A DNA stretch of 64,000 nt from positions 15,532 through 79,531 of the forward strand of contig JAUSJG010000027.1 in NCBI GenBank assembly GCA_030647555.1. The letters are read 5' to 3'. Within the stretch, counting starts at the first letter, position 1; each line of letters opens with the position of its first letter. Below are positions 3,303 to 61,236 of this stretch, piece by piece. The notes below the pieces were generated by a model. The model was given only the letters and a program-made list of their open reading frames with translations. It made no database searches and had not been told where the DNA came from. The translations under genes were made by a program, and so were the position numbers. The DNA comes from a bacterium. GTDB taxonomy: Bacteria > Patescibacteriota > Andersenbacteria > UBA10190 > CAIZMI01.

Positions 3303-3620
3303 TGATTTATGAACTAGAACAAATGCGGCGTCGTTCCTCCTCATCATTCATAAATCATTATTCATCATTCCATCACGCGTAATCGCTCACAGGTTAAGGA
3401 AATAGCCATAGCGATCGCTTCGGCGTTGTCAATCCGTGTTTGCGCTAACCAACACCGATCACGGAACGGAGCAACCTTGCTCCGTTCCGTGATCGGACGC
3501 GATGGTTATTCCTTAACCTGTGAGCGCGTACCATCACGCTGTTTGACAGCGTGATTCGTGTGTTTTATTATGCAGTGTTCCTGTGTTTCGTGTTCCTTTT
3601 ATCATGAAAGCGAGTAGTTT

Positions 3621-4292
3621 ATGTTTGAACGTTTCACTGATCAGGCACGGAAGGTTATGCAACTGGCCAACAGGCATGCACAACGGATGAATCTCGAATA
3701 CGTCGGCACCGAGCATATTTTACTCGGTTTGATTGAAGAAGGTTGGGGGTTGGCGGCTGTCGTGTTGAAGAATTTCGGCGTCGATTTGGGTAGGACTCGA
3801 TTGGAGGTGGAGAAGTTGGTCAAATCCGGACCCGAGATGGTCACCATTGGAAAACTGCCCCAGACGCCCAGCGCCAAGAAGGTGATCGAGTACGCGATGG
3901 AAGAGGCTCGCAATCTGAACCACAATTACATTGGCACCGAGCATATCCTGTTGGGATTGTTGCGGGAAAACGAGGGAGTTGCTGCCCAGGTGCTAATGAA
4001 CCTGGGGGTGAAGATTGGGGATGTTCGCGCGGAGGTTCTCAATGTGCTTGGACATGGCCCGGAAATCAAGAAAGAATTCCAAAAAGATTCCGCTCCCGAC
4101 GCGAATACTGTTTTGGAAGAACTCCTTGTTGCCGCCGGTAAGAAGCGCGAGGACTTGCCCGCTTTGTTGAGGGGGTTAGACAACAAAGAAAGCGATATTA
4201 GGGCTTTCATTACTTTTGTTCTGAAGCTAAGTGTCTTCAAGGAGTCTGAAATTAAAAAAGAAAATTCGGCCTCGGTTTCGGAGCAAAAGTGA
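3621..4292 (+). CDS. Stand-alone Clp N-terminal-domain protein (two Clp_N repeats, no ATPase domain)
   Basis: 223 aa. VGTEHILLGLIEEG and IGTEHILLGLLREN repeats match Clp_N. No Walker motifs. Strong hairpin plus T-run terminator immediately downstream. Confidence 0.6.
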   Translation: MFERFTDQARKVMQLANRHAQRMNLEYVGTEHILLGLIEEGWGLAAVVLKNFGVDLGRTRLEVEKLVKSGPEMVTIGKLPQTPSAKKVIEYAMEEARNLNHNYIGTEHILLGLLRENEGVAAQVLMNLGVKIGDVRAEVLNVLGHGPEIKKEFQKDSAPDANTVLEELLVAAGKKREDLPALLRGLDNKESDIRAFITFVLKLSVFKESEIKKENSASVSEQK

Positions 4293-5303: not shown

Positions 5304-5317
5304 AATAGTTATTAATT

Positions 5318-5450
5318 TTCAATTATCAATTCCCAATTTTCAAACAATTATCAATTATTTAATTGTCAAAAGTTGCGCGTTTTGGAAAATTGAAATTTGA
5401 AAATTAATTGATAATTGGTCATTGAAAATTGATAATTTTAAATTTTAAAA
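5318..5450. promoter_or_regulatory. AT-rich upstream element of htpX; shares ~30-nt blocks (ttcaattatcaatt..., aattggtcattgaaaattga.aatttt) with the region upstream of the dsbA-like gene at 37456-37600
   Basis: Direct sequence comparison of the two intergenic regions. Both lie immediately 5' of minus-strand envelope-quality-control genes. Confidence 0.45.
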
Positions 5451-5461
5451 TCCTGTGGATT

Positions 5462-6013
5462 TTAAAATTTAACTTGTGGTACCTCTTTTTCCGCCACGTC
5501 GTCTAATTCAAAGAAAGCACGCTGTTTGAAATTGAAAGTGGAGGCGATAAAATTGCCTGGAAATACTTGCATTGCGGAGTTCATATCGCGTACATTGCCA
5601 TTGTAGAAACGACGGGAGGCTTGGATTTTGTTTTCCGTGTCGGAAAGTTCGCGCTGTAGCTCAAGAAAATTCGTATTGGCTTTCAGGTCCGGGTAGTTTT
5701 CCGCAACGGCAAAAAGCGATTTTAGGGTACCGGTTAGGGCGTTTTCCGCTTTTGCTTGGTCTTCCTGGCTTCCACTTTGCATAGCCTTTGTTCTGGCTTC
5801 AGTAACGGCCGTGAGAACACCGCTTTCGTGCGCCACGTAGCCCTTGACGGTTTCAATCAGATTGGGAATAAGATCGTGGCGACGTTTCAGTTGAACGTCA
5901 ATATCCGACCAGGCTTCGTCGGTGTTGTTTTTAAGACGGATAAAACCGTTATAGGTTATTACAACCCAAAGAACGATAGCGACGACGATTACCAGGAGGA
6001 TTAGCAACAACAT
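5462..6013 (-). CDS. lemA: LemA-family membrane protein
   Basis: 183 aa. N-terminal TM helix, then IRLKNNTDEAWSDIDVQLKRRHDLIPNLIETVKGYVAHE, typical of LemA. Confidence 0.8.
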   Translation of the reverse strand: MLLLILLVIVVAIVLWVVITYNGFIRLKNNTDEAWSDIDVQLKRRHDLIPNLIETVKGYVAHESGVLTAVTEARTKAMQSGSQEDQAKAENALTGTLKSLFAVAENYPDLKANTNFLELQRELSDTENKIQASRRFYNGNVRDMNSAMQVFPGNFIASTFNFKQRAFFELDDVAEKEVPQVKF

Positions 6014-6228
6014 ATGTTTGTATAAGGATAATGTCTATAATGTATACCGTTTTTGCAAAGGAGCAAGGAGTTGCTAATTTCTAATTTGCAATTTCTAATT
6101 TTTTCGGCATTGGGGACTGACGTAAATAACCTGTTCATATTTTGTTTAAGTACGCTTAAGAATAAGATTACTATGATTGAACAACGTAAAGTTGCGTGAC
6201 CACGTGGTTTTACGCGATGGTCGTCTAA

Positions 6229-6273
6229 AGGTATCAGGTACTTTTTTACCGGATAAAAAAGTACCTGATACCT
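6229..6273. promoter_or_regulatory. Perfect 19-bp-stem inverted repeat in the leader of the giant-protein gene
   Basis: aggtatcaggtactttttt-accggat-aaaaaagtacctgatacct, 40 bp upstream of the ATG at 6312. Also the palindrome gtgaccacgtggt at 6196-6208. Confidence 0.4.
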
Positions 6274-6311
6274 TTCGTTCTGTGCTACAATAATCCAGAA
6301 TACAAATACGT

Positions 6312-9300
6312 ATGTTAAGAACTTTTAAATCGGTCTTCCCTGGTATCCTGACTGTTGTTTTATTTATGGGTTGGTTTAGTCTTGCCACGCCGAAGCTTTT
6401 TGCGGAGGAGGGGGTTGCTTCATCACAAGAGACCAGTACCACTCCCGAAGTGGACCCGTTGGCCACTTCGGGAGTGGTACTGGGTGAAGCAACTCCCGCT
6501 TCAACACCGACACCCACTTCTGATCCAACACCAACACCAAATTCAACACCGCTACCCACTCCCGATCCCACGCCCGCTGTCACTCCCCCAATTACCCCTG
6601 TTCCTAATCCCAGTCCCACGGCTACACCGGAGGGAACTGATCCCGAGAACGAAAAACCAAATATCACCAAGACGGAAGAAGATACGGATACGGGGAAACT
6701 AGTCACTCTTTCCGCGCCGGACGAGACGGTAAATAATCAAAACGTCGTCACCGGCACCGAGATCCCCGAGATCTACAAAGTCGGTCAAGAAGGAAGAATC
6801 CAAATCAAGTGGAAAAACAACAACGATCAGGCAATGCAATTCAAGGCCGAAGATAAAAACAACAACGGCAAGCTTGATTACGTCGAGTGGACCGTTCCTC
6901 ATCTCTCCACCCAAGTCTTTGAAATCATCTACATCAGCAAAGCCTTCCAATTAGACGAGAACAAAGAAATAATCAGTGACATCTACGATAAGGTAAAGAC
7001 CCAAGATAACAACTGGGCAACAGTAAAAGATGGCCAATCTGTCCGTGTAACCTTCCAACAAGTATTGGATAATACGAAAGATATCACGATTCACGCCAGA
7101 CCAAAACAGAATCCTTTACTTTCTCTTTTTCAAGCCAAACCAAAAATCGAAGTTTATCCTGTTTATTCCACCACCCCTGAGACATCGGGGGTCCAAGCGT
7201 CCGAACCAATCGCCACGTTTCAAAGTATCGACAAAGAAAACACTTATCAAATCCTTCTCAAAGACTTAAAGACCCCTACCGATCAGTTTGATCTAAGAGT
7301 TATCAATGGCGACATTGATTTTGATTACATCGTAGATCCAGTAGGCTGGCTGACAAACTGGACTCACAGAAAGAAGATCACCATTGCCAACACCAATGTG
7401 GATGCGGATTTAACGGATTTTCCGGCACTGGTGAGCATTACTGCTGATGCGGATTTGGCAACCGCACTGGCAACTGGCTACGACATCAGGTTCACGGATT
7501 CCGGCGGAAGCACTTTGCTTTCCTACGAACGAGAATCTTGGTCAGGAGGCGCAGGCGCCAGCGCCACAGGAATCTTCTGGGTCAAAGTGCCAACCATCGA
7601 CGACACCGTGGACACCGACATTTATGTGTACTACGGCAAAAGTGACGCCGTCGACGGCCAATCGGCCGTCAATGTGTGGGATAGCAATTACAAAGGCGTG
7701 TGGCACATGGACGACGGGGCAGACACAAGCCACATTAACGATTCGACTTCCAATGGAAAAACCGGAACAAAGGAGGGGGCAGCAACACCTTCGCAAACAA
7801 CAGGATTGATCGGAAAGGCACAAAGCTTTGCCGCGCAACAAATCTCCACATCGAATATCGGGGTTTCTACGGTCGCTGGCGATAAAACAACGGTAGATTT
7901 TTGGATGAAGTGGGACGGAACGGACGAAGTGATGCCGTTCGGATTCGCGGCCTACGACCTGTATATGCATTTATCCGGCATAGGATTCAATTCCGCGCAA
8001 GGCGATGTATATGGCATCCCGACGACCGGATTCTCCGGGAACTGGAAGCACATAACGGCTGTGTTTTTTAACGGAGCATACACGGGGAATACGAAGATCT
8101 ATGTCAACGGAGTCTCCCAAACACTGACGCAGCTGTTTGGAGGCGCAGGAAGCGCGACCGTCAGCGTCAATCCTATGATCAGTGGCTGGGGATATAATTC
8201 GGGGTATAAATTTTCCGGATTATTGGATGACGTGAGAATATCGAATCTTGAGCGCTCTGCGGAGTGGATTAAGTTTGAATATTATAATCAAAGCTCGGCA
8301 AATGCAGAACTTACTTTTGCAAGCCAAGAAAACAATGTAAGCTGGTTGGCTGGCTGGAGCAATAGAAAGAAAATCACTATTGATCATACTAAAGTTGGTG
8401 GAGGCACTGAAACCCAAACCAACTTCCCGGTTCTTATTTCCCTCACAGGCTTATCCGGCATCAATGCCAATGGCACCGACATCAGATTCACTGCTGATGA
8501 TGGTGGAACATATCTTGCCCGCGAAATTGAAAGTTATTCCGCCGGCGCCCTTACCGCCTGGGTGAAAATTCCAACATTATCCCACACCGCAGACACCGTG
8601 ATTTATATGTACTATGGCAATAGTAGCGCTACCGAGCCCGCCGCCAATTCCACGTATGGAAGCCAAAATGTGTGGGACAGCAGTTTTAAAGGCGTGTGGC
8701 ATTTGAAGGAAGCAACAGGAGTAAACAATGCCGACTCAACCAGCAACGCCAACACAGGAACGCCAACGAATGGTCCAGTGCAAGCCACAGGGAAAGTTGA
8801 TGGCTCATTGAGCTTTGATGGGGGGGATGATTATGTAAATGTAGGAACTATTATTAATGTCGGCAACACGTTTAGCGTCGATGCTTGGTTCAACGCCAAT
8901 GAAGTAAAGACAGCCGGTTTAGTTTCAGTAATTGATTCAGGTGGGGACGGTCACTATGGCATTTGGACGAGAAACGACGGCACTGTTGAACTAATACTAG
9001 ACTGGTCGACTGGATGGACAAGTGTATCAACCACATATAGCACAAACAATTGGATACATATTATTGGCACATTTGATGGTACAACACTTCGTCTTTACAA
9101 AAATGGAATACTAGCGATTTCAAATACACCATCTGGTACTCCGATAAATGCTTCCAACAACTTAGTAATTGGAGCGATAACGGCAGCGAGCTTTCCATTC
9201 AACGGTCTCCTCGATGACACTCGCGTTTCCTCCACCGCTCGCTCCGCAGGTTGGATTGCTACCGAGTATGCCAACCAAAACTCTCCGGGGACTTTTTATG

Positions 9301-12300
9301 CAACCGATGATACCGGCGGAACCAGCAACAACATTGTTTGGACAGATGGTTCGGGAGACAACTTGTGGAGCACCGCCGGCAACTGGCAAGGCGGAGTAGT
9401 CCCAACCGCCAGTGACACCGCGGTGTTTAATTCCTCTGCCACCGGAAACGTCACCATAGACACAAATGCCAGCGTCAAAGGCATCAACATTGCCAGCGGT
9501 TACACCGGAACTATCACGCAATCTGCAAGTTACACCGTCACTATAGGAACCAGCGGTTTTACCCAAGCCGACGGCGTGTTTTCCGCCGGAGCCGGAGCCT
9601 TCACCGTGTCCGGCAATTGGGCGCACTCCGCAGGAACATTTACCGCCAACTCCGGCACGGTCACGCTCAATGGCACCGCTCAAACCATCTCCGGCAGCAC
9701 CACTTTCTACAACCTCACCAAGTCCGTAGCCTCTGCCGACACCCTCACATTTACCGCAGGAACAACACAGACAATTACCAACACCCTCACTCTCAACGGC
9801 GCCAGCGGACAACTGCTCTCGCTTCGTTCTTCCTCAACGCCAACGCAATGGAGCATCGATCCCCAAGGCACGAAATCATTCTCCTACCTGGATATCCAAG
9901 ACTCCAATAATATTAACGCCGTCAAAGCCAACGCTGGTTCCACCTCCATCTCTTCCGGTAACAATACCAACTGGTTCTTTGATGACACACTTCCGACAAT
10001 CCAATCCGTCTCTTCCGATAAAGCCAATAACACATACACGACCGGTACCGTCATCGATATCGACCTCACGTTCTCCGAACCCGTTACCTTAACCGGTACC
10101 GGCACGATCACCCTCGAAACAGGGACAACAGATCAAACCTGCGATTTTCAAGTTACCGACTCCGCTACAACAACCTGCAACTATACCGTGCAAACAGGAG
10201 ACACCAGCAGTGATCTCACTGTTAAAACAGTGGAAGGAACAATCAAAGATTCAGCAGAGAATCAAATGACCAATTTTGTGCCCGCCTCCAACCTCGCCGT
10301 AAACAAACAAATTGTAATCGATACTTTCCCCACCGCACCCTCTAATCTAACCGCCACCGTTCTTTCTTCTTCTTCCATTAAGTGGGACTGGACGGATAAC
10401 AGCAGTAACGAAGCCGGTTTTAAGTTGTACTCCTCCACAGGGACGCTTCTTGCGACCGTTTCTACAGGGGTAACCACATATACCGAGACAACGCTCACGG
10501 AAAACACCACATACAATCGCAAAGTCGTTTCATACAACAACGCCGGCAATTCTGCTTATTCTTCCACCGTTTCCGCGCTCACCAAACTAAACGCGCCATC
10601 GCTACTTTCCGGTCTCGCCATCTCTTCTACCAGTATTACCTGGAGCTGGACAGACAACAGTGGTGATGAAACAGGGTTCAAATTGTATGATGAAAATAAT
10701 GATTTGGTTGCTACGATTTCGACAGTCAATCGAACATACTACACCGAAACAAGTCTCACCAAAGGAACCAGTTACACCCGCAAGGTTGCTTCCTATAACG
10801 ATGATGGCACGTCAAGTTATTCCAACACCGTCACCGTCCAAACCCTCGCCCTCGCTCCCGCTTCACCAAAGCTTTTCACACCTGTTCCCGGCGCAGAGTT
10901 GGACACGCTCACGCCGACCTTCTCCTTTGGCCGTGTCTCCACCCTAGACGGCATCAAGTCGTACACCCTGCTAATCTACACAGAAGGAAGCACAACTAAG
11001 TCATACACGATTACTGATCTCCCTGATGGTTCCGTCGTCAACAACTCCGACTACACCGCCGAAGGTAATCAAGATTCCATAACCATCACCCTGAAAACAG
11101 AAGCCGGTCTTGTCAAAGGTCCCCACACATGGAAGGTGCGGGCCACGGACAACAACAACGCAACGGGAGACTCCGACTTCGCTTCCTTCACCATTGTCCT
11201 TACCGAAACCACCGCCGTCATCTCTCAACCCACTCCCACCGCGACCAGCAGTCCCGCTCCGTTGGAAGAACTGGCCGTTAAACCTCTTACTCCCGCCGAA
11301 GTAACCAAGCAGTACCAAGCAGGGAAGACTCCCTCCCGTACCAGTCCCTCACTCTGGCTTGATAACCTGGAGAAACAAGCGCAGATCAGAGCGGATAAGC
11401 AAACGGAGAATATGGATCAGCTGTTAAGCAAGTTTATTCCATTTGAGAAGATCCAAGCTTTTAATAACCGCCTGCAAGCCTTTATGCAAAGTCTCCAACA
11501 AAAATTAGCCAGTTTCTTTAATACAATGAAGAATCAAATAATCGCCTTCTTCACTAACACAACGCCTTCCAGTGTTCAACGTTTCTTCGCTTTCCTTTCT
11601 TCCTTCTTCCAAAACACAAGCAATTGGTGGGCGGAGCTGATGCAACAGGGCCGAGCGAACAGACTGGCGCTCGCGGAACAGGGAACAAACATCTTTGTCG
11701 TTTCGTTTAATCCCGTGAACAAAGTGGTGTCAAGTATGCAAGCGGGTGTGTTTAACATTATTGAGAAGTTCCAAGGCATCAACACGCCCAAAGATGCCAT
11801 CCTTGCCGATATCACGGCCAACCAGACCGCGCTTAAGCAATCTACCAATCGTCTGGTCGAAGGTACCGTCGATTTCTTCGGCCGACAGTTTAACGCGACG
11901 AAGAAAATCGCCATCTCCCTCTTCGCGGGGGCGCACACCACGTTCCGTTATAAGGTTTTGGCGGGAACGGGCGTAATTATAAGGAATACCGGTACTTGGC
12001 TTCACAATCTAATGAGTCAAGGCCGAGAGAACCGATTGGCGCTGGCGGGGAGTGGAACGAAGGTAGTAAACACCATCATTGATCCTGTACAGAGAGTGAG
12101 AAAAGCCGCCTGGCTTGGTTCCATTCAAGCATTGGAAGTTCTGGAAGGCAAAGACCAACTGAAACTCGCCATCGCCGACGTCCATCTTTCTGAGATACTA
12201 AACAACGAAGCCACGCTTAATTGGTCCACCAATCGTGTGACTTACGCCAAAGTCAACTACGGCGAATCCCTGATGTATGGCGAAGAAGTATTTATCAACG

Positions 12301-12434
12301 ACTATCAAAATAAACAAACAATAAAGTTGCCAAACCTAAAACCCAACACGAAGTATTATTTCGAGATTATTGTTACCGATCTGCAAAAAGAACAAGCGTA
12401 CGACGCGTATTATAGTTTTGTGACGAAAGAGTAG
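6312..12434 (+). CDS. Giant (2040-aa) secreted/anchored surface protein: signal anchor, Pro/Thr linker, two tandem DUF2341-like + LamG/ConA-like modules, beta-helix-like Thr/Gly-rich region, Ig-like and two FN3-like domains, duplicated C-terminal helical region, terminal FN3-like domain
   Basis: N-terminal hydrophobic segment, then TPTPTSDPTPTP linker. Two copies of W..RKKITI...FP.L....G..DIRFT module. Each copy followed by LLDDVRISN..RSAEWI / LLDDTRVSSTARSAGWI (LamG signature). Two FN3-like repeats (W.WTDNS..E.GFKLY...Y.R.V.SYN..G.S.YS). Internal duplicate QGRxNRLALAxxGT. Domain names assigned by motif recognition only. Confidence 0.75.
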   Translation: MLRTFKSVFPGILTVVLFMGWFSLATPKLFAEEGVASSQETSTTPEVDPLATSGVVLGEATPASTPTPTSDPTPTPNSTPLPTPDPTPAVTPPITPVPNPSPTATPEGTDPENEKPNITKTEEDTDTGKLVTLSAPDETVNNQNVVTGTEIPEIYKVGQEGRIQIKWKNNNDQAMQFKAEDKNNNGKLDYVEWTVPHLSTQVFEIIYISKAFQLDENKEIISDIYDKVKTQDNNWATVKDGQSVRVTFQQVLDNTKDITIHARPKQNPLLSLFQAKPKIEVYPVYSTTPETSGVQASEPIATFQSIDKENTYQILLKDLKTPTDQFDLRVINGDIDFDYIVDPVGWLTNWTHRKKITIANTNVDADLTDFPALVSITADADLATALATGYDIRFTDSGGSTLLSYERESWSGGAGASATGIFWVKVPTIDDTVDTDIYVYYGKSDAVDGQSAVNVWDSNYKGVWHMDDGADTSHINDSTSNGKTGTKEGAATPSQTTGLIGKAQSFAAQQISTSNIGVSTVAGDKTTVDFWMKWDGTDEVMPFGFAAYDLYMHLSGIGFNSAQGDVYGIPTTGFSGNWKHITAVFFNGAYTGNTKIYVNGVSQTLTQLFGGAGSATVSVNPMISGWGYNSGYKFSGLLDDVRISNLERSAEWIKFEYYNQSSANAELTFASQENNVSWLAGWSNRKKITIDHTKVGGGTETQTNFPVLISLTGLSGINANGTDIRFTADDGGTYLAREIESYSAGALTAWVKIPTLSHTADTVIYMYYGNSSATEPAANSTYGSQNVWDSSFKGVWHLKEATGVNNADSTSNANTGTPTNGPVQATGKVDGSLSFDGGDDYVNVGTIINVGNTFSVDAWFNANEVKTAGLVSVIDSGGDGHYGIWTRNDGTVELILDWSTGWTSVSTTYSTNNWIHIIGTFDGTTLRLYKNGILAISNTPSGTPINASNNLVIGAITAASFPFNGLLDDTRVSSTARSAGWIATEYANQNSPGTFYATDDTGGTSNNIVWTDGSGDNLWSTAGNWQGGVVPTASDTAVFNSSATGNVTIDTNASVKGINIASGYTGTITQSASYTVTIGTSGFTQADGVFSAGAGAFTVSGNWAHSAGTFTANSGTVTLNGTAQTISGSTTFYNLTKSVASADTLTFTAGTTQTITNTLTLNGASGQLLSLRSSSTPTQWSIDPQGTKSFSYLDIQDSNNINAVKANAGSTSISSGNNTNWFFDDTLPTIQSVSSDKANNTYTTGTVIDIDLTFSEPVTLTGTGTITLETGTTDQTCDFQVTDSATTTCNYTVQTGDTSSDLTVKTVEGTIKDSAENQMTNFVPASNLAVNKQIVIDTFPTAPSNLTATVLSSSSIKWDWTDNSSNEAGFKLYSSTGTLLATVSTGVTTYTETTLTENTTYNRKVVSYNNAGNSAYSSTVSALTKLNAPSLLSGLAISSTSITWSWTDNSGDETGFKLYDENNDLVATISTVNRTYYTETSLTKGTSYTRKVASYNDDGTSSYSNTVTVQTLALAPASPKLFTPVPGAELDTLTPTFSFGRVSTLDGIKSYTLLIYTEGSTTKSYTITDLPDGSVVNNSDYTAEGNQDSITITLKTEAGLVKGPHTWKVRATDNNNATGDSDFASFTIVLTETTAVISQPTPTATSSPAPLEELAVKPLTPAEVTKQYQAGKTPSRTSPSLWLDNLEKQAQIRADKQTENMDQLLSKFIPFEKIQAFNNRLQAFMQSLQQKLASFFNTMKNQIIAFFTNTTPSSVQRFFAFLSSFFQNTSNWWAELMQQGRANRLALAEQGTNIFVVSFNPVNKVVSSMQAGVFNIIEKFQGINTPKDAILADITANQTALKQSTNRLVEGTVDFFGRQFNATKKIAISLFAGAHTTFRYKVLAGTGVIIRNTGTWLHNLMSQGRENRLALAGSGTKVVNTIIDPVQRVRKAAWLGSIQALEVLEGKDQLKLAIADVHLSEILNNEATLNWSTNRVTYAKVNYGESLMYGEEVFINDYQNKQTIKLPNLKPNTKYYFEIIVTDLQKEQAYDAYYSFVTKE

Positions 12435-12436
12435 AC

Positions 12437-12610
12437 GGACTGCCAGGGTCGGATATCGGGTCGGACTGCTGTAGCGGTCCGACCCGCATTGGTCGGCGAC
12501 ACGTTGCCGCCAATCAAGGTCGGACCGCTCGGCAGTCCGACCTTACGCAGACGGGTCCGACCCTGAACCCAACGTGGTTCAGGGGTCCGACCTTAATGCG
12601 TCGTCTAATT
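12437..12610. repeat. REP-like cluster of at least four hairpins with GGTCGGAC/GTCCGACC arms
   Basis: ggtcggac-tgctgtagcg-gtccgacc; ggtcggac-cgctcggca-gtccgacc; gggtccgaccctgaacc-caacg-tggttcaggggtccgacc. Same family at 1-73 and 55076-55178. Confidence 0.6.
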
Positions 12611-12742
12611 CAGTCCCCTAAATGACGATTTTAGAAATTAGATATTAGTAATTGGAAATTTTTAAAACGATATGATTTTGTCATATCTGCTATTTAGCGT
12701 TATACTATCTTTATCAAAAAACAAACTAACATTTCGTAACAC

Positions 12743-13960
12743 ATGTCCCTATTTTCCAGAAAAGAATCTTATATCGGTTTAGATATTGGTACGTCTTCAA
12801 TAAAGATTGTTGAATTGAAGCGAGAGGGGAAGGATCAAATAAGATTAGTTACCTATGCGTCCGCGAAGAGCGCGGAGTCTTTGGCGAGTGATCAAAACAA
12901 TTCAGCCGTCGCGCATGTTGCGACAATCGCGCACGAGATATTACGGCGCGCGGGGGTGACTTCTTCGGAAGTGGTAGCCGCGCTTCCCAGTTTGTCTGTT
13001 TTTTCTGCTGTACTTTCTCTCCCTGATATGAGTGAACGTGATTTGGAAAAGGCGGTTGTTTTGGCGGCCAAAAATTATGTACCATCGCCATTAAAGGATG
13101 TTGTTTTGGGTTGGACGGTGATGAAGGAGGGTATTTCGTCAAAACCGGCATTGCCTGTGGATAAATCCAATAATCAGATGCAGTCGGTTGTAGGTGCCGT
13201 GGGAAAATTTGTTGATTTGAAAAAAAATGAAAATTCGGGCCAAGAGAAGCAAATTGTTCCGGTTGTTCCCGAAGATAGCGCCGAATTGAAAGTGCGTCGC
13301 CCTCTTGCGAAGAAAAACTCGGAAATATTTTTGACGGCTGCTCCCAAGGAATTGGTGCAACGCTATTCGGCGGTGATTGATCGATTGAATTTGAGCTTGG
13401 TTGCGTTGGAAGTCGAATCTTTTCCACTTTCACGTTCTCTTTTGGGGAACGCGAAGGAACCGGCGTTATTGGTGGATATTGGCGATTTGGCGACAAATTT
13501 TTCGATTGTGGATAACGGTTATTTGCGCATCAACCAGAGTGTCGATATTGGCGGAGCCGTATTAACCAAGGCTGTTGTCTCAAAATTTGGTGTTTCGTTG
13601 GAAGTGGCGGAAGCGCGCAAGTTTTCCTTTGGTTTAACTTCGGAAAAAGATAATGAAAGTACGGCAATGGCTTTAAAACCGGTAGTAAAAGATATTATTG
13701 ATCGAAGTATTAATCTAAAACGTATTTTTGAAAGAAAAAGCAATAAGGTTGTTGGTCGCGTGGTATTGATTGGCGGGGGGGCGAACCTAAAAGGTCTTGC
13801 GCAATTTTGGCAAGAAACATCGGGGATGTTTACCGAGGTGGGAAATCCATGGAAAGGCGTGCGGGTTCCGCTCACTTTAACTAATAAGTTAATTGCAAAC
13901 GGGCCTTCTTTCGCGGTGGCGGTTGGTTTGGCATTGCGCGAATTGGAACTTGGGGACTGA
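12743..13960 (+). CDS. pilM: Type IV pilus assembly protein PilM (actin-like ATPase fold)
   Basis: 405 aa. N-terminal YIGLDIGTSSIKIVEL actin-fold phosphate-1 motif. C-terminal VVLIGGGANLKGL. Sits at the head of the pilN/O/B cluster. Confidence 0.85.
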   Translation: MSLFSRKESYIGLDIGTSSIKIVELKREGKDQIRLVTYASAKSAESLASDQNNSAVAHVATIAHEILRRAGVTSSEVVAALPSLSVFSAVLSLPDMSERDLEKAVVLAAKNYVPSPLKDVVLGWTVMKEGISSKPALPVDKSNNQMQSVVGAVGKFVDLKKNENSGQEKQIVPVVPEDSAELKVRRPLAKKNSEIFLTAAPKELVQRYSAVIDRLNLSLVALEVESFPLSRSLLGNAKEPALLVDIGDLATNFSIVDNGYLRINQSVDIGGAVLTKAVVSKFGVSLEVAEARKFSFGLTSEKDNESTAMALKPVVKDIIDRSINLKRIFERKSNKVVGRVVLIGGGANLKGLAQFWQETSGMFTEVGNPWKGVRVPLTLTNKLIANGPSFAVAVGLALRELELGD

Positions 13961-14129
13961 CGTAAATAAACTATCCATCTTATGTCCACTACATCTCTGA
14001 CTACAATTACTACTCAATCACAAAATCTCTCACCGTACTTACAGTACGCCTCAAGATTTTGTTCAATCGTAGTAACCGTATTCAGAGCGTATTGAACAGA
14101 ATATGGACAGGTTATTTACGTCAGTCCCC
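13952..14129. repeat. 178-bp element bounded by 27-bp terminal inverted repeats (ggggactgacgtaaataaactatccat ... atggacaggttatttacgtcagtcccc); left TIR overlaps the pilM stop codon; a third TIR copy at 6102-6128
   Basis: Inverted repeats read directly. Reverse complement of the right arm is ggggactgacgtaaataacctgtccat. Near-identical 27-mer at 6102-6128. Confidence 0.55.
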
Positions 14130-14192
14130 AAAGCGAGTAAAATAGAATAAGTTATTCACAGGAGAGATATACACACTAAACAAAACACTACA

Positions 14193-14843
14193 ATGCCGAA
14201 AATAAATCTAGCTCAAGAAACAATGCGAAACCAAGCCATTGCGCGACGACGCAAGGTTGTGTATTTATTTTCGATTGTCGTCTTGGTGATTGTTGGTGCG
14301 TTTTATTTTGGCGTTTTGTTGCTAACAAAAAATTCTGAGGGAAAAGTGGCCGAAGTTGATAAACGTATCAAGGGTTTGGAACAACAAATTAAATCGCGCG
14401 AAGTCTCGGCAAAACAGATCAAGGCGTTTAGTATGCGTTTAGTTAATGTGGAGAGTCTTCTGAAAAACCATACGCGCTGGTCAACGACTTTGAGTGAGCT
14501 GGAGCGCCTAGTTTTGCCATCTGTTAGCATCCTTGGATTAAATGGCGGTGCGGATACCAAAGAGATCACGATGGATGTTTCGGCGCCAACAATCGAAACC
14601 GCGGCCGATCTTGTCGTGTCGCTAGAATCGGAGGCAAAAAATAATGAAACATTTTTCAGTAACGTTATTGCGTCATCATTGGGTTCGAGTAGTTCGAGCA
14701 GTTCAACGCCTAACGCAAGTACTGTTTTTGCTACAAAGCTTAAGTTTATAGTTAAACCGGAAGGGTTTCTTGATAAGAACATTTCCGTTTCTTCAGCCGA
14801 GTCTCCGGCTGTGGCGACGCCCGTTAATCCATTAATTCCCTAA
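14193..14843 (+). CDS. pilN: PilN-like type IV pilus inner-membrane assembly protein
   Basis: 216 aa. Single N-terminal TM helix then coiled-coil. Positioned after pilM. Confidence 0.55.
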   Translation: MPKINLAQETMRNQAIARRRKVVYLFSIVVLVIVGAFYFGVLLLTKNSEGKVAEVDKRIKGLEQQIKSREVSAKQIKAFSMRLVNVESLLKNHTRWSTTLSELERLVLPSVSILGLNGGADTKEITMDVSAPTIETAADLVVSLESEAKNNETFFSNVIASSLGSSSSSSSTPNASTVFATKLKFIVKPEGFLDKNISVSSAESPAVATPVNPLIP

Positions 14844-20414: not shown

Positions 20415-20507
20415 GGGTAGCTTTTAGGTTAATTTTGAACTTAGAAGCAAGATGGGCCTTGAAGAATAACTGGTTTATTTACGCCCAAAATTACCAATGT
20501 CCAATTA

Positions 20508-20541
20508 CCAATTTCCAATGAAATTTCAAATTCCAAAAACG
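20508..20541. promoter_or_regulatory. CCAATTTCCAA...CCAATGAAAT motif upstream of the pilin gene (also at 48612-48637 and 59351-59394)
   Basis: Three copies, each in the 5' region of a plus-strand gene. Confidence 0.35.
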
Positions 20542-20645
20542 TCGTCTTTGCGCCTGCCGGCCGTAGCTTTAGCGAAGGCTGGAGCCAATCTCCTGAACTT
20601 TCGTATTGAAAACATTACTATTTTATCGAGAGGAGGTGATCGCGT

Positions 20646-21056
20646 GTGAAAAAGTTAAATAACAAAGGTTTTACCCTCATCGAATTGTTGGTTGTTATTG
20701 CGATCATCGGATTGCTAGCATCAATGGTTTTGGTGGCGGTATCAACAGCAAGAGCAAAGGCGAAGGATGCCCGCGTTAAAGCTGATGTTCAACAAATTAG
20801 GGTTCTTGCGGAAGCTTCGGCGAGTGATTCTGGTTCTTACTCAGACACGACTAGTTGGCCTACAGCAGCACAAACATCTTACGGAACACTTTCTGGTGAT
20901 ATTGGATCTCAAGGAGGTACGGTTACAAAAAATGTTAATGGAACAACCTCGTTCTGTATTAGTTCAACTTTGCCATCTGATAGTACTAAGAGTTTTTGTT
21001 TGGCGACTACAGGCAAAACTGGTACCGTTGCGTGTGGAACAGGAGATTGTCCGTAA
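20646..21056 (+). CDS. pilA: Type IV (major) pilin, class-III signal peptide (GTG start)
   Basis: 136 aa. KG|FTLIELLVVIAIIGLLA prepilin cleavage/N-methylation motif. AGGAGG Shine-Dalgarno 8 nt upstream. Confidence 0.85.
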   Translation: MKKLNNKGFTLIELLVVIAIIGLLASMVLVAVSTARAKAKDARVKADVQQIRVLAEASASDSGSYSDTTSWPTAAQTSYGTLSGDIGSQGGTVTKNVNGTTSFCISSTLPSDSTKSFCLATTGKTGTVACGTGDCP

Positions 21057-21060
21057 AGAT

Positions 21061-21145
21061 ACAAATGGAAAAAAACAACGCGGAAAATCCCGCGTTGTTT
21101 TGTATTGTAGTTTTCCCCGACTTCGTGCCTACTCTCTGTTTAGTT
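21061..21145. repeat. 85-bp module containing a bidirectional rho-independent terminator (copy 1, terminates pilin gene)
   Basis: aaaaaaacaacgcggaaaatcccgcgttgtttt hairpin with flanking A-run and T-run. Identical 85-mer at 21432-21516. Confidence 0.65.
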
Positions 21146-21431: not shown

Positions 21432-21516
21432 ACAAATGGAAAAAAACAACGCGGAAAATCCCGCGTTGTTTTGTATTGTAGTTTTCCCCGACTTCGTGCC
21501 TACTCTCTGTTTAGTT
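21432..21516. repeat. Second identical copy of the 85-bp terminator module, abutting the stop codon of the minus-strand GT-C gene
   Basis: Exact 85/85 identity with 21061-21145. Confidence 0.65.
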
Positions 21517-32875: not shown

Positions 32876-32879
32876 CGAT

Positions 32880-32915
32880 ACCCTCCCTTATTCAAGGGAG
32901 GGCGAGGGTGGGTTT
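32880..32915. repeat. Hairpin-family repeat ccctcccttattcaagggagggcgagggtggg (partial copy of the CCTCCCTTT..AAAGGGAGG family)
   Basis: Read directly. Related copies at 44255, 48726, 53100 and 61237. Confidence 0.5.
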
Positions 32916-33111
32916 TGTGTGTGTATATTTTATTTTTGGTAAACGGTATAGGTATTTAGGCTTGTTCATCATAGCTTCGTCTTCGTTTGTATCGATATAT
33001 CGATACAAGGTTTTGGAAATTTTGAATTTCATTAGAAATTAGATATTAGTAATTAGTCATTTTGGGCGTCGATAAAACAGTATTAGCAGAGTTAAACAAG
33101 ATGTTTATATT

Positions 33112-34819: not shown

Positions 34820-34893
34820 CGCGGGGAAGAGCAGCCCGGTCGCTCGCATGGCTCATAACCATGAGGTCGCAGGTTCGAATCCTGCCCCCGCTA
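34820..34893 (+). tRNA. tRNA(CAU), initiator-like (C1/U72 mismatch, A11:U24)
   Basis: Cloverleaf folded by hand: acceptor cgcgggg/ccccgct, D-stem gagc/gctc, anticodon stem catgg/ccatg with loop ctCATaa, T-arm gcagg-ttcgaat-cctgc, discriminator A. No encoded CCA. Confidence 0.7.
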
Positions 34894-34935
34894 CTATTAC
34901 TAAAAAGACCCCTGTGGGGTCTTTTTAGTAATAGA
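34894..34935. terminator. Perfect hairpin after the tRNA (ctattactaaaaagacccc-tgt-ggggtctttttagtaatag)
   Basis: 19-bp stem read directly. Similar aaaatacccctgtggggtatttt hairpin at 35044-35066. Confidence 0.45.
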
Positions 34936-34940
34936 ATGTG

Positions 34941-35375
34941 TGCAGGATTCGAACGGTTCATATTTTCGTCGCACGAAAACATGAACCGGTGGCCAGAATT
35001 ATGCAATATCAATTGCATAATTCGAGGCCAAATCCTGCCCACAAAATACCCCTGTGGGGTATTTTTATTGTTATGATCGAGTGCAGGATTTGAACGGTAT
35101 CGTTGTTTCGTAAAACAACGATACCGGTGGCCAGAATTATGCAATATCAATTGCATAATTCGAGGCCAAATCCTGCCCCCTGCGTGGCTCGTGTTTTATT
35201 TATAAAATTTCGCAAAGCGAAATGACAATAATGACGAGCGATATCTTCGAACCAATACTATTGGTTCGAAGATATCGCTCGGATTTGAACGCCGGAGCAT
35301 ATTTTGCGAAGCAAAATGCGAGGCGGTGGCCAGAAACTTTCGTGTCAACGAAAGTTTCGAGGCCAAATCCTGCCC
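34941..35375. repeat. Three tandem ~95-100-nt structured elements (34941-35040, 35083-35178, 35281-35375). Conserved scaffold: gcaggatTYgaac-[hairpin1]-ggtggccaga-[hairpin2]-tcgaggccaaatcctgccc. Candidate structured ncRNAs or tRNA-end-derived miniature elements.
   Basis: Scaffold termini pair (gcaggatt/aatcctgc). tggcc/ggcca encloses hairpin 2. Hairpin 1 differs completely in sequence among the three units yet keeps a 13-14-bp stem. Hairpin 2 is aattatgcaat-atca-attgcataatt in units 1-2 but aaactttcg-tgtcaa-cgaaagttt in unit 3 (compensatory changes). The 3' end aatcctgccc equals the 3' T-arm/acceptor of the adjacent tRNA. Confidence 0.6.
35262..35306. repeat. Perfect inverted repeat gagcgatatcttcgaacc-aatactatt-ggttcgaagatatcgctc between structured units 2 and 3
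   Basis: 18-bp stem read directly. Confidence 0.45.
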
Positions 35376-35518
35376 AGCGCGTAAATCAGAAATCGGGAGT
35401 GGAAATCGGAGATGACGTCTTGTCCATTTACAAATGCAAAAAATTTAGTAGTATTACTCTAGTTTGGGAAGTCGGATGGATCCGACCACCGACTATCTGA
35501 TTTCCGATTTCCGCGTTT

Positions 35519-35591
35519 GGCTGGATAGCTCAGCGGTTAGAGCAATGGCATCATAAGCCATGGGTCGCAGGTTCGAATCCTGCTCCAGCTA
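35519..35591 (+). tRNA. tRNA(CAU), elongator-type (Met or Ile2/lysidine)
   Basis: Acceptor ggctgga/tccagct (G1-U72). D-stem gctc/gagc. Anticodon stem atggc/gccat with loop atCATaa. T-arm gcagg-ttcgaat-cctgc identical to the first tRNA. Discriminator A. Confidence 0.75.
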
Positions 35592-35617
35592 CAAATTATT
35601 CGTAGGGTATTTGTACA

Positions 35618-36583
35618 TTGTTCGCAAAACGTACGGATACGGTATATAATAGTAGCATGAGAGCAAAAGTTGTGGAAAAGTCGCGGGCAATTCAATTGCG
35701 TAAAAACGGTTTAAGTGTGAAACAGATTGCTCAAAAATTAAGCGTCAGCAAGGGTAGTGTCAGTCCTTGGGTGAAGCTGGTTGTTGTTCCGAAAGAAAAG
35801 AGAAAAAAGATCCGCGAAAGAATGTTAATGGGCGGAGAGAAGGGGAGAAAGAAAATTTTGCGAGGTTGGGATGAATATCGAATATTGCATCCAAAACCGC
35901 CACCATATGTTAAACCAGTCCGTTTAATTGACACTTTTTTTGACAAGTGGTCGCCCGAAATGGCGTATGTGCTGGGCTATTTTGCAGCGGACGGCTGTAT
36001 GTTTCGAAACAAGCGTGGGTCTTATTATATCGAATTTACCTCCACAGACATTGAGTTGATTGCATGTGTAAAAAGTATTTTGGAATCAACAAACAAACTT
36101 GAACGATACAAGCTTAAAAACCCAAAATATAAAATCAGGTATAATATTCAGCTTGGGAGTAAAAGTGCTTTCTTGTCGCTTAATAAACTTGGTTTAACAC
36201 CAAATAAGAGTTTAATAATCAAGTTTCCAGCTGTGCCTGATGAGTATTTGGGGCATTTTTTGCGTGGTAACCTTGATGGCGACGGCTGTGTTACTTTCAC
36301 AAATTATTTTCGAAAAGACAGGGGAAAAAGATATTTGAGTTTAATGATCCGTTTCACCAGTGGAAGTAGAGTGTTTTTAGTCGGGATGAAAAATAGGATT
36401 GAACAAAAAATACCGAATATCGGTGGAAGTTTGATATTATACACTCCAAGGCACCATGTTTTGGCGTATTGCACGTCAAGTGCTAGACAACTGTATAAGA
36501 TAATGTATCCTAATAAATTAGTGCCCTGTCTAAAGCGTAAACGTGACATTTTTCTTAGGGCATTTGAGATTTTGGACCCGTAG
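35618..36583 (+). CDS. Free-standing double-motif LAGLIDADG homing endonuclease with N-terminal helix-turn-helix domain
   Basis: 321 aa. Motif 1 MAYVLGYFAADGCMF and motif 2 LGHFLRGNLDGDGCV (LAGLIDADG consensus). N-terminal LSVKQIAQKLSVSKGSVSPW HTH-like. Last two codons plus stop overlap the 5' acceptor of tRNA-Asp. Confidence 0.85.
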   Translation: MFAKRTDTVYNSSMRAKVVEKSRAIQLRKNGLSVKQIAQKLSVSKGSVSPWVKLVVVPKEKRKKIRERMLMGGEKGRKKILRGWDEYRILHPKPPPYVKPVRLIDTFFDKWSPEMAYVLGYFAADGCMFRNKRGSYYIEFTSTDIELIACVKSILESTNKLERYKLKNPKYKIRYNIQLGSKSAFLSLNKLGLTPNKSLIIKFPAVPDEYLGHFLRGNLDGDGCVTFTNYFRKDRGKRYLSLMIRFTSGSRVFLVGMKNRIEQKIPNIGGSLILYTPRHHVLAYCTSSARQLYKIMYPNKLVPCLKRKRDIFLRAFEILDP

Positions 36584-36648
36584 TTTAATCGGTAAAACAC
36601 CTGCTTGTCACGCAGGAGACAGCGAGTTCGATCCTCGTCGGGTCCGCC
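36574..36648 (+). tRNA. tRNA-Asp(GUC) with encoded CCA
   Basis: Acceptor ggacccg/cgggtcc. D-stem gttt/aaac. Anticodon stem cctgc/gcagg with loop ttGTCac. T-arm gcgag-ttcgatc-ctcgt. Discriminator G then CCA. Confidence 0.8.
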
Positions 36649-37384: not shown

Positions 37385-37455
37385 AATGATTGATTGAAGT
37401 GTTAGATCTATATGATGAGCATATAGAAAGGATGGAGGAGAAGCAAGCGCAAATT

Positions 37456-37600
37456 TTCAATTATCAATTTTGCAATTTTCAAATAATTTTCAATGATTTA
37501 ATTATTTGATAGCGTCACCATCTTTGAGAATTAGAAGAATTGATAATTATTTGAAAATTGGTCATTGAAAATTGAAAATTTTGTATAATTATTCATATAA
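37456..37600. promoter_or_regulatory. AT-rich divergent promoter region sharing conserved blocks with the htpX upstream region (5318-5450)
   Basis: ttcaattatcaatt...ttttcaa and aaaattggtcattgaaaattgaaaatttt present in both. Confidence 0.45.
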
Positions 37601-44212: not shown

Positions 44213-44405
44213 GGATCACACGCGATAATGGGTCATTTGAGGTAGGCGTAGCGATTCCTCCCTTTTTCAAAGGTTGCACACGCATCGGCGGTGTTACCCT
44301 GATGGGTTAAAGGCGGGGAGGGATTGTGAAGATAAGCACAGTCTAAGCTTCTTATCTTAATCCACCCTCGCCCTCCTTTAAATAAAGGAGGGAAACGACG
44401 GCGTC
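44213..44405. repeat. Composite ~190-bp structured element E1 (left hairpin cctcccttt...aaagg interrupted by a 37-bp segment, middle arms ggcggggagggatt/aatccaccctcgccc, right hairpin ccctcctttaaataaaggaggg)
   Basis: Near-identical modules to E2 at 53056-53246. The 37-bp segment ttgcacacgcatcggcggtgttaccctgatgggttaa (44274-44310) is present in E2 as its reverse complement at 53181-53217. Confidence 0.6.
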
Positions 44406-48579: not shown

Positions 48580-48975
48580 TATTTGAAACTTGGGCGACAG
48601 AATGCCCAATACCCAATTTCCAATAACCAATGAAATGTTCGAATGTTCAATTCGGGCATTTTTGTAAAGGAGGGCAGTCTTTGCGAGCCATCGCTCGAAG
48701 CGAGGCGAAGCAATCTCTCGCGTTTCCTCCCTTTATTCAAAGGGAGGAGGGGAGGGATTTTAGGCGAGTGTAAGGCAAAAACAACCAACACATATATTAT
48801 AGTAAGCGCTCACAGGTTGAGGAAATAGCCGTAGTGGCCACATCGAAGGTGGTGCTTCAGCACTTCCTCGGGAGTGGATGCAGGTTAGCGACGAACGAAC
48901 CCACACCACCTTCGAGGAAGCCGTGAGCGGCCACCTCGAAGGTGGTCACTTATCAAAATATTTTGTAACATAAAC
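48580..48975. repeat. Repeat-rich structured intergenic region combining members of several families (CCAATTTCCAA motif, cctccctttattcaaagggagg hairpin, cgctcacaggttRaggaaatagccRtag motif, ccaccttcgagg/cctcgaaggtgg palindromes)
   Basis: Motifs read directly. The cgctcacaggtt...aggaaatagcc 29-mer also occurs at 3396-3424. Confidence 0.5.
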
Positions 48976-48977: not shown

Positions 48978-49700
48978 ATGCATAAAGGTCTACTCCTCGT
49001 CAACGAAGGTCCGGATGGTTCCGGCAAAGAAACGCAGACACGACTACTTTGCGACTATTTGGAAGGAGAAGGGTATAATCTCGTAAAATTTTCGTTTCCT
49101 ACATACAAGCAAGATCCGGTGGCGGACTTGATTCGGTTTATGTTGCACGAGGCCAAGGATGATTGGAACACACGCGATTGGCGTTCTAAAGCGGTTTTAT
49201 ATGCATCGAACAGGTTACGCTTCGCGCCAGAGATGCGCGCAGCATTAGAAGTTCCGGGGAACGTTGTTATATGTGATCGGTTTGTTTCCAGTAACCAAGG
49301 CCATATGGGCGCGTTGGCGGAAGATCCGACCGAGCGCTTACAACGCTACGCCTGGATTGATCATTTGGAATTTGAAATGATGGGCCTGCCAAGACCGGAC
49401 GTTGTTTTATTACACACGATGCCGAGTGAAATGCGGGCTCAGCTTCTAATGAAACGCGAAAACGGAAATCCGGACGCGCACGAAGGAAATTCCGCATATC
49501 TAGACCTTGTCGAACAAAGTTACTACGAACTGATGGATTTTTACCCGGAAGTTTGGCGACACATTCCGGCGGACATGGACGGAAGGTTGCAGACGCCGGA
49601 TGAAGTGCACGGACGTGTGAAGCAAGCACTTCTGGGACATCAAAATTGGATTGAATTTGTAGAACAACGAGAGCCGGCTGGCATTCAATTTGAAATTTGA
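48978..49700 (+). CDS. tmk: Thymidylate kinase-family protein (dTMP kinase)
   Basis: 240 aa. P-loop EGPDGSGKETQ. DRF motif (CDRFVSSNQGHMGA). Lid region. Confidence 0.75.
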   Translation: MHKGLLLVNEGPDGSGKETQTRLLCDYLEGEGYNLVKFSFPTYKQDPVADLIRFMLHEAKDDWNTRDWRSKAVLYASNRLRFAPEMRAALEVPGNVVICDRFVSSNQGHMGALAEDPTERLQRYAWIDHLEFEMMGLPRPDVVLLHTMPSEMRAQLLMKRENGNPDAHEGNSAYLDLVEQSYYELMDFYPEVWRHIPADMDGRLQTPDEVHGRVKQALLGHQNWIEFVEQREPAGIQFEI

Positions 49701-49868
49701 AATTTTTAATTTGAAATCAATTTTTAATATTTAAATTTGAAATAACGACGCGCGGTTTTCAAATTAAGATATTTAACTATTTCAAATTGATTAAAAATTT
49801 CAAATTTCAAATTAAAAATTGGCAGTCAACTAGGTGACAAACCACACGTTTTCTTTTAATCTGAGCTT

Positions 49869-52384: not shown

Positions 52385-52404
52385 AATGAAATTTTGGTTT
52401 ATCT

Positions 52405-52435
52405 GTGACCGACCCTGGCGTACAGGGACGGTCCC
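52405..52435. repeat. 31-nt element GTGACCGACCCTGGCGTACAGGGACGGTCCC in the miaA/52471 divergent region; inverted near-identical copy at 59414-59444
   Basis: 30/31 identity after reverse-complementing. Both copies sit in divergent promoter regions. Confidence 0.55.
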
Positions 52436-61229: not shown

Positions 61230-61236
61230 TAGCATT

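Follow-up and report, generated by a model that had tools for sequence, protein, structure and literature searches.

REPINs are inverted doublets of repetitive extragenic palindromic (REP) units that are mobilised by RAYT, an IS200-like HUH enzyme; they occur in tens to hundreds of copies, have conserved ends and a strand-specific fold, make no target duplication and persist for a long time, and RAYT itself is usually REP-flanked. MITEs, short for miniature inverted-repeat transposable elements, are defined here by their size, terminal repeats, non-coding nature, hairpin transcript and insertion polymorphism, and their flanking duplications decay with age (PMC10969869). The Correia elements (CREE/NEMIS) of Neisseria and the RUP elements of Streptococcus pneumoniae are MITEs of the IS630 type; their insertions lie at gene ends and in operons and may give rise to outward promoters and to substrates of RNase III (PMC2649163, PMC2229807, PMC10969869). 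The Rickettsia palindromic elements (RPEs), of about 150 bp, insert inside protein-coding genes, join the reading frame and have no known transposase, and Acinetobacter integrons flanked by identical MITEs are an example of MITE-flanked cargo (PMC10969869). A full-text literature search returned no relevant work on MITEs or small mobile repeats in the Candidate Phyla Radiation (CPR)/Patescibacteria. Here we describe a 178-bp foldback element between pilM and pilN in a 64,000-nt stretch of DNA from an uncultured member of the Andersenbacteria (Patescibacteriota; contig JAUSJG010000027.1, assembly GCA_030647555.1, positions 15,532 to 79,531), which is referred to as the window. With a probability of roughly 0.8 it belongs to the non-autonomous mobile elements of the MITE kind, as a foldback of 178 bp whose arm ends are conserved over about 55 nt. 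It is assigned to a low-copy foldback family, not previously described, of this familiar element kind.

The element (13952-14129, no strand assigned) was delimited by its repeats and its fold and consists of two arms of about 88 nt with an apical loop near 14040. Its left terminal inverted repeat, GGGGACTGACGTAAATAAACTATCCAT, is the end of an a1-type arm and occupies 13952-13978 on the plus strand; the right one, at 14103-14129 on the minus strand, is the end of an a2-type arm, which the arm profile recovers from 14129 to 14043 (E = 5e-25). The two repeats differ by 2 mismatches (25/27 matched), with 20/20 matches at the tips including the flanking TT/AA. An earlier note on this DNA, made from the sequence alone, had placed the 27-mer and its inverted partner at these very positions, and 100 dinucleotide shuffles gave 0 matches to the 27-nt pair. 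The separate 124-bp core that the same note proposed between the repeats does not hold up in the way that the inverted-repeat ends do: the core is itself part of the palindrome, because 13950-14131 folds as a single rod-like hairpin, with RNA energies of -78.7 kcal/mol for the plus strand and -102.5 for the minus strand (z = -13 and -15). A comparison of folds places a symmetric 6x6 internal loop in the rod, its two strands lying at 14014-14019 and 14063-14068 (both TCAATC on the plus strand; GAUUGA on the minus strand).

The upstream gene (12743-13960, +) encodes a protein of 405 aa that is identified as PilM by matches to PF11104/PF14450 and by a GenBank entry, 'pilus assembly protein PilM', which it matches at 100%. 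As the earlier note had read it, GGG GAC TGA (13952-13960) forms the final two codons and the stop of this open reading frame (ORF); the TGA lies at 13958-13960 and a second in-frame stop, TAA, at 13967-13969. An alternative code with TGA as glycine was rejected, as TGA ends 12 of 33 Pfam-supported genes in this DNA and long conserved ORFs are intact under table 11. The only ORF inside the element has 38 codons (13982-14098, +; MSTTSLTTITTQSQNLSPYLQYASRFCSIVVTVFRAY) and is open in all three copies described below. It lacks a ribosome-binding site, and direct comparison of the copies gives 16 changed codons, 14 non-synonymous and 2 synonymous; a coding explanation for the element was rejected on these grounds, and for the same reasons the ORF is probably a by-product of the palindrome.

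Relatives were gathered by a PilM search, from 86% identity downwards, and their contigs were fetched. Four lineages have pilM and pilN only 50-51 nt apart, against 232 nt in the window, and no element between them; their PilM identities to the window are 86% (L005), 81% (L006/7), 79% (L008-10) and 72% (L011/12). The DNA on both sides of GGAAC^AAAGCGAGTAAAATAG can be aligned between these lineages and the window, base for base, which gives ...TTGGAAC^AAAGCGAGTAA AATAGAAGAGGTTATTCACAG as the empty junction and ...TTGGAAC-TT-(GGGG...178 nt...CCCC)-AAAGCGAGTAAAATAGAATAAGTTATTCACAG as the filled one. The same element is found at the same pilM-pilN place and in the same orientation in L001 (CAIZMI010000034.1), a lineage of which L020 is a second assembly. 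In the window and in L001/L020 the net gain is 178+2 bases, located exactly at GGAAC^AAAGCG, 8 nt before the ancestral pilM stop codon; comparison of empty and filled sites identifies the two extra bases (13950-13951, +) as TT in the window and TA in L001/L020. The string AAAGCGAGTAA at 14130-14140 (+), identical in the empty-site lineages L005 and L008-10, is the relic of the old pilM 3' end and is now non-coding. Downstream of the element the next operon gene (pilN position, 14193-14843, +) retains its native 63-nt leader and ribosome-binding site intact.

By this insertion the ancestral CAA AGC GAG TAA (Q S E stop) was changed to C-TT GGG GAC TGA (L G D stop), and the length of PilM remained the same by coincidence. 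Among the C-termini of 44 PilM relatives, ...E[QLI]SE is common and ...ELGD is confined to the filled lineages. The pilM tree joins the window to L001/L020 as its sister, at a nucleotide distance of 0.20, and leaves every empty lineage as an outgroup, so that one gain suffices. It was in the ancestor shared by the window and L001/L020 lineages that the element entered the end of pilM, and the terminal repeat of the element supplies the new TGA stop of the gene. Insertion at a gene end had been proposed in the earlier note, which would have given it up had relatives conserved the motif purely as the coding end of pilM; since PilM has another end (QSE*) in the relatives that lack the element, coding conservation does not account for the motif, and the empty junctions of four lineages are joined by an independent second locus with an empty site of its own. 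With filled and empty sites at two loci the element is a clean, datable example of a mobile repeat, and it illustrates how a conserved pilus-assembly gene can have its end rewritten in this way and come to no harm.

The second locus, L004, is a single match from the JGI metagenomes, in which the element stands directly after the TAA of a Bac_transf sugar-transferase gene and before a GT4 glycosyltransferase gene. L013 and L014 are independent assemblies of this locus and both contain the element. In L015-L018, whose glycosyltransferase is 91% identical, the two genes are separated by only 13 nt and the element is absent, with spacers too diverged for an empty site at the nucleotide level. Because the same element occurs at an unrelated operon junction for which an empty-site relative exists, it has moved, at least once besides the insertion at pilM. 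The three distinct full copies are each exactly 178 nt long and mutually 85-88% identical (88% for the glycosyltransferase-locus copy). Just after the copy in L004 (783-812), the 8-mer ATGCGCGT occurs twice, 14 nt apart (TA-ATGCGCGT-AATTTG-ATGCGCGT); the second occurrence is the start of the glycosyltransferase gene, and the empty-site relatives have an unrelated 13-nt spacer.

Copies are few. An exact 18-mer search of 185,579 GTDB species-representative genomes gave one true match, L001, at the pilM site alone (one arm exact, the other with 1 mismatch); two further matches are chance occurrences inside unrelated coding DNA. The 27-nt degenerate pattern was found on one contig of the JGI metagenomes (L004), a pattern scan of IMG/VR gave 0 matches, blastn against phages and plasmids gave 0 matches, and nhmmer with the arm profile over about 230 kb of sequence from the window and its relatives revealed no further diverged copies. 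The MITE family that the earlier note had offered as one option was not borne out as an abundant one: outside the window the 18-mer occurs in one other representative genome, at the same pilM-pilN site, and the 27-nt pattern in one JGI contig.

Regarding the generic definition of MITEs, the element lies below 500 bp, has terminal inverted repeats, is non-coding (its sole ORF, of 38 codons, is without a ribosome-binding site), would form a hairpin when transcribed and is polymorphic, the pilM site being empty in four lineages and the second site being filled in L004/L013/L014 and empty in L015-18. It falls short in copy number and in an autonomous parent, with three sites in the 64-kb window and no transposase there. 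It resembles the Correia and RUP elements in size (about 100-200 bp), in terminal repeats of about 26 bp and in a hairpin that spans the whole element (PMC2649163, PMC2229807, PMC10969869), and the net +2 nt at the pilM site fits their 2-bp duplication. It differs from them in lacking sequence similarity and an intact TA duplication, in having 1-3 copies rather than tens to hundreds, in its strand-asymmetric wobbles and in being strongly conserved between orthologous sites across lineages with saturated synonymous sites. Like the RPEs it is palindromic, of similar size and part of a gene (PMC10969869), whereas RPEs remain in frame and are translated through and this element truncates and re-terminates its gene at the very end; the sequences are unrelated and the phyla different.

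Compared with REPINs and the IS200-IS605 elements, as these are generally understood, it shares a long imperfect hairpin of two inverted units, conserved ends and a variable apex that is kept paired by compensatory change, together with the lack of a clear target duplication, strand-specific folding and long-term persistence. It departs from REPINs in that the arms are much longer (about 88 nt), are not palindromic REP units and carry no GTAG-type tetranucleotide; the architecture, an inverted two-arm hairpin without a clear duplication, would fit, but the lone arm has no REP-like fold. No RAYT is encoded in the window (no Y1_Tnp match among about 47 ORFs), and the copy number is tiny. A Tn3-derived TIME was rejected. 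The first 11 nt of the element, GGGGACTGACG, match 10/11 positions of the Tn3 end, GGGGTCTGACG, and begin with GGGG, but a 38-bp repeat that ends in TAAG is lacking (no TAAG at 35-38), and so is a 5-bp duplication (5-nt flanks AACTT/AAAGC and TATAA/TAATG). An integron attC site (RYYYAAC ... GTTRRRY) was likewise rejected, as the ends read GGGGACT...AGTCCCC and the window contains no integrase or array; the preference for folding of the bottom strand is the only likeness. Judged by analogy, the element would work most like Correia/RUP-type MITEs or REPINs, and like RPEs in joining a gene; by sequence it belongs to none of the three.

The fold is asymmetric between strands in every copy. Minus/plus RNA energies of the three copies are -101/-78, -93/-80 and -90/-67 kcal/mol, and standard pairs make up 98.2% of the 219 pair cells of the minus strand, compared with 36-44% paired in slid controls. 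Five pairs are changed on both sides, a value reached by 2 of 500 shuffles. The wobble cells of the stem comprise 21 G.U and 1 A.C on the minus strand, with three G.U pairs invariant, and the 1x1 mismatches that are conserved read A.G in the minus strand, hence C.U in the plus strand; minus-strand G.U(T) and G.A pairs thus correspond to A.C and C.U when the plus strand is read. The 6x6 internal loop is GAUUGA/GAUUGA in the window and GACCGA/GACCGA in L001 and L004, its tandem G.A pairs being invariant and the change from UU to CC having occurred in parallel in both arms. Mutation bias was rejected as the source of the asymmetry: the GC skew of the plus strand is positive, so that a deamination bias would favour G.T on the plus strand, opposite to what is observed. 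The molecule on which selection acts appears to be the folded bottom strand, which is the minus strand in window coordinates.

The dinucleotides beside GGGG...CCCC are TT/AA at pilM in the window, TA/AA in L001, AA/TA in L004 and TT/TA for the putative cassette described below. A clean target-site duplication, for which the earlier note had advised looking, was not found, as the flanks differ at every copy examined. The 178+2 bases gained at pilM represent either a decayed 2-bp duplication or a 180-nt element without duplication; a Tn3-like 5-bp or a 3-bp duplication is ruled out by the net +2 nt. The TAA/TAA at the glycosyltransferase locus may be due to chance. On the a2 side the flanks of all three sites are alike over about 16 nt (AAAGCGAGTAAAATAG, (T)AATGCGCGTAATTTG and AATGCCGAAAAAATTAG), with anchored matches of 10/16, 10/16 and 9/16 (background probability of at least 10 matches, 0.0076), and the a1-side flanks of the three sites show no mutual resemblance. 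As the a2-side stretch is native at the pilM site, either the target was chosen on one side or the copies took the pilM-site flank along.

The enzyme, encoded elsewhere, would mobilise the element in trans, now or formerly. The lack of a clean duplication, the likeness of the flanks on one side only and an asymmetry opposed to the local mutation bias point to transposition through a single-stranded DNA hairpin, following the logic of REPIN/RAYT and IS200-IS605. This reading is favoured only slightly, and cut-and-paste with a 2-bp duplication is nearly as likely. In its full form the latter account, which deserves serious consideration while remaining short of an even chance, holds that the element is a classical MITE of a DDE transposase (IS630/Tc1-like or IS5/ISL2-like) with a 2-bp duplication, later co-opted as an RNA hairpin, promoter or processing site, and that the asymmetry reflects selection at the RNA level. 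The long terminal inverted repeats, perfect over 20/20 positions with the flanking TT/AA, agree with it, as do the net insertion of exactly the element plus 2 nt at pilM, flanking dinucleotides composed throughout of A/T (two of them TA), a promoter-like TTTACG-17-TAAAAT at the right end and the precedent of the Correia and RUP elements, which form hairpins, give rise to promoters and undergo cleavage by RNase III (PMC2649163, PMC2229807, PMC10969869). Against it, the two flanking dinucleotides differ at every copy, the flanks are alike on one side and not in a palindromic manner, the strand with the stronger fold runs antisense to both host operons with no conserved antisense promoter evident, and no cognate transposase is found among the about 47 ORFs of the window. 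Insertion at TA in the manner of IS630/Tc1 was itself rejected, since TA is missing from the point of insertion in the empty pilM site, GGAACAAAGCG, and does not flank any of the copies on both sides.

Beyond the full copy, the window contains one half copy and one terminal 9-mer. The earlier note had reported a third copy of the 27-mer at 6102-6128; the true site is 6112-6138, ten bases further right, which differs from the left repeat by 3 mismatches and from the right repeat, taken as its reverse complement, by 1. It opens a half copy of about 88 nt, a single a2-type arm (6112-6199, +; arm profile E = 1e-18, model positions 1-87), which lies 98 nt from the lemA start, resembles 14042-14129 as read on the minus strand and then diverges. 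The terminal 9-mer GGGGACTGA has four occurrences in the window (6112+, 13952+, 14129- and 12618-); the last of these, found by exact search at 12610-12618 on the minus strand (TCAGTCCCC on the plus strand), is inverted with respect to that at 6112 and lies 19 nt to the left of 12637, where homology to the lemA-pilM spacer of L019 resumes.

Between the two lies a giant gene (6312-12434, +) for a protein of 2040 aa with Laminin_G_3, DUF2341 and fn3 domains. In L008, L009, L011 and L019 lemA and pilM are divergent neighbours, 147-273 nt apart, without the giant gene, which is thus an insertion relative to these lineages because lemA and pilM are adjacent there. The left edge of the inserted segment coincides with the arm at 6112, so one arm and one terminal 9-mer bracket a segment of 6.5 kb, which is suggestive of a cassette (6112-12618) bounded by element termini, with the giant gene as possible cargo. 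Both a mobile insertion cassette and a gene dropped into a pre-existing element copy would fit this suggestive arrangement. Inverted element ends around a gene without a transposase are as in a mobile insertion cassette; in difference to one, the right end is a 9-mer, no second copy of the cassette is known, and the boundaries are placed to within about 20-40 nt and not to the base, the relatives being too diverged in the lemA-pilM spacer. The element may also mark how a giant surface-protein gene, typical of these bacteria, came to stand beside the pilus operon.

The GC skew of the giant gene (8001-12000) is -0.14, compared with +0.04 to +0.23 elsewhere in the window, and its GC content is higher (0.49), which fits a foreign or recently inverted origin or a strong effect of amino-acid composition. 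A perfect 20-bp hairpin with T/A runs on both sides (6229-6273), resembling a bidirectional terminator, is located between the half copy and the likely -10 box of the giant gene, TGCTACAAT (about 6283-6291). In L021, at about 105-113 on the reverse strand, TTAGTCCCC|AA resembles the terminal 9-mer; it is 97 nt upstream of lemA, at the same lemA distance as the 6112 copy and in the opposite orientation, but it is solitary, could be due to chance (roughly P = 0.04) and was rejected as too weak to use as a trace of the element.

A more far-reaching reading joins these features into a new type of strand-specific hairpin transposon of CPR/Patescibacteria, which would move as a folded single strand without duplication, recognise or carry along about 16 nt on one side and transport kilobase cargo (the 6.5-kb segment with its giant adhesin-like gene), and which the host would have kept as an outward promoter, as an intercistronic processing hairpin or as an RNA with a GAYYGA/GAYYGA protein-binding loop. 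We regard this combination as unlikely.

Since its insertion the pilM copy has changed little. When the window is compared with L001, identity is 50.4% (483/958) at the four-fold degenerate sites of eight flanking genes, against 84.8% for the element (151/178; binomial p = 6e-22). Within the element it reaches 93-95% in the outer 55 nt of each arm and 70.6% in the inner part (p = 6e-4). The orthologous copies contain no indels, their substitutions preserve hairpin pairing, and their rate of change is about that of the neighbouring coding DNA and far below that of the four-fold degenerate sites. No local peak of identity in the flanking genes suggests a recent import by recombination. Sequence comparison therefore indicates that the element has probably been retained under constraint since its insertion. 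Its conservation, far beyond that of neutral DNA, is the main respect in which it stands out from other MITEs; constraint that bears on one strand and the one-sided likeness of the flanks, with possible cargo, are its two unusual properties. As a merely decaying selfish insert it would be ordinary; the 85% versus 50% identity and the wobbles on one strand make it a tractable case for studying the domestication of a MITE and which strand and molecule are selected.

At pilM the element would act at least as a terminator codon and a large intercistronic hairpin. With CCCCAAAGCGAG after the hairpin in place of a U tract, it is not an intrinsic terminator, and a terminator scan of the window does not list it. 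The a2 end faces the start of the next gene at all three sites (pilN at 63 nt, the glycosyltransferase gene at 16 nt, lemA at 98 nt), and the right arm may give the downstream gene a -35 box. The promoter-like TTTACG (in the repeat) and TAAAAT (in the old pilM end), separated by 17 nt at 14115-14143 (+), are a consensus match only; TTTACG stands 17-18 nt from an A/T-rich hexamer at all three sites (by scan in the window and by eye at the other two). An outward promoter from the right arm may thus be a host-level role of the element, as in Correia elements (PMC2649163).

Readings without mobility fare worse. A free-standing gene for a structured non-coding RNA (small and antisense, or a rod of the 6S kind) that was copied to a few places, the palindrome being the RNA gene and not a pair of transposon ends, is improbable: it would account for the rod shape of the hairpin, its length of about 180 nt and its conserved G.A and G.U pairs, for the pairing-preserving changes on one strand and for the strong conservation, but the hairpin extends, in the manner of transposon ends, to the very last inserted base, no such RNA would come from the half copy at 6112, and the two full sites, whose flanks differ, have no conserved minus-strand promoter or terminator. 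Rfam yielded no match for 13900-14200 even at E <= 10, and only three tRNAs in the whole window at the gathering score. Still harder to sustain is the shared regulatory palindrome that the earlier note offered as an alternative, a non-mobile host operator common to the giant gene and pilMNO. Two sites do lie within the same 8-kb neighbourhood and the element is conserved beyond neutral expectation, but the site upstream of the giant gene is a half element of one arm only, hence no palindrome, a second full copy occupies an unrelated glycosyltransferase operon, and the same junction lacks the element in four relatives with otherwise collinear pil operons. Chance or low-complexity similarity, an assembly artefact or coding-sequence conservation, for which nothing speaks beyond the AT-rich intergenic setting, can be set aside in view of the 0/100 shuffles and the fold z-scores of -13 to -15, the recovery of the same element in independent assemblies from GenBank, JGI, ENA and Logan, and the 14 non-synonymous against 2 synonymous codon changes.

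Several observations weigh against a mobile element of the MITE kind as set out here. The copy number, three sites in all that was searched, is very low and atypical for MITEs and REPINs, and no copy is flanked by identical direct repeats. No autonomous copy was found in any set searched, and a Pfam scan of the about 47 ORFs of the window, which comprise housekeeping and type IV pilus genes and one LAGLIDADG-like ORF among tRNAs, revealed no transposase, RAYT or integrase. With three distinct full copies only, the statistics on covariation and on asymmetry are thin, the more so as inheritance and not independent change accounts for several G.U pairs; intramolecular repair can keep the arms of a palindrome matched without selection. 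A single arm is not itself palindromic, unlike the REP units of REPINs, and the lone arm at 6112 does not fold by itself as a REP palindrome. The right end of the putative cassette consists of the 9-mer only. Finally, selfish mobility does not explain conservation at a single locus, for which a putative host-level function or gene conversion would be needed.

The window also contains repeats of other kinds. GC-rich palindromic repeats built on GGTCCGACC/GGTCGGAC (e.g., CCAATCAAGGTCGGACCGCTCGGCAGTCCGACCTTAC) occur at 30-69, 12440-12600, 52400-52450, 55084-55120 and 59399-59449; they are a separate family of REP-like or terminator-like appearance, several of them stacked just downstream of the giant gene. 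A hairpin of CCTCCCTTTATTCAAAGGGAGG followed by GGGGAGGGATT is found in both orientations and at gene ends at 32876-32918, 44252-44397, 48724-48759, 53097-53239 and 61235-61340 (repeat families D1, D9, D12, I2, I8, I9 and I13). Arrays of AT-rich motifs (AATTTTCAATTATCAATT, TTAGAAATTAGATATTAG), often as inverted pairs, are present in many intergenic and promoter regions (5314-5470, 6076-6099, 12627-12686, 20469-20545, 33002-33081, 37450-37583 and 49684-49829); similar arrays precede pilM in L005, L006 and L019, and the contigs of several relatives break there.

Downstream of a pilin gene (20646-21056) a perfect direct repeat of 85 nt occupies 21061-21145 and 21432-21516, 371 nt apart, each copy containing a terminator-like hairpin (AAAACAACGCGGAAAATCCCGCGTTGTTTT). 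The region 34820-36646 comprises three tRNA genes with an ORF bearing LAGLIDADG_3/HTH_23 domains (35618-36583) between them; fragments of tRNA 3' ends are repeated there (34985-35040 and 35123-35178 are 100% identical, and TTCGAGGCCAAATCCTGCCC occurs three times), and the region could be the remains of an integration or homing event. An additional ORF of 223 aa with Clp_N domains only (3621-4292) lies between recX and a gene for an M48 peptidase; L008 and L011 lack it there, and L019 has a Clp_N ORF of 330 aa that adjoins its M48 gene. The 44 nt at 3379-3422 are repeated at 48802-48845.

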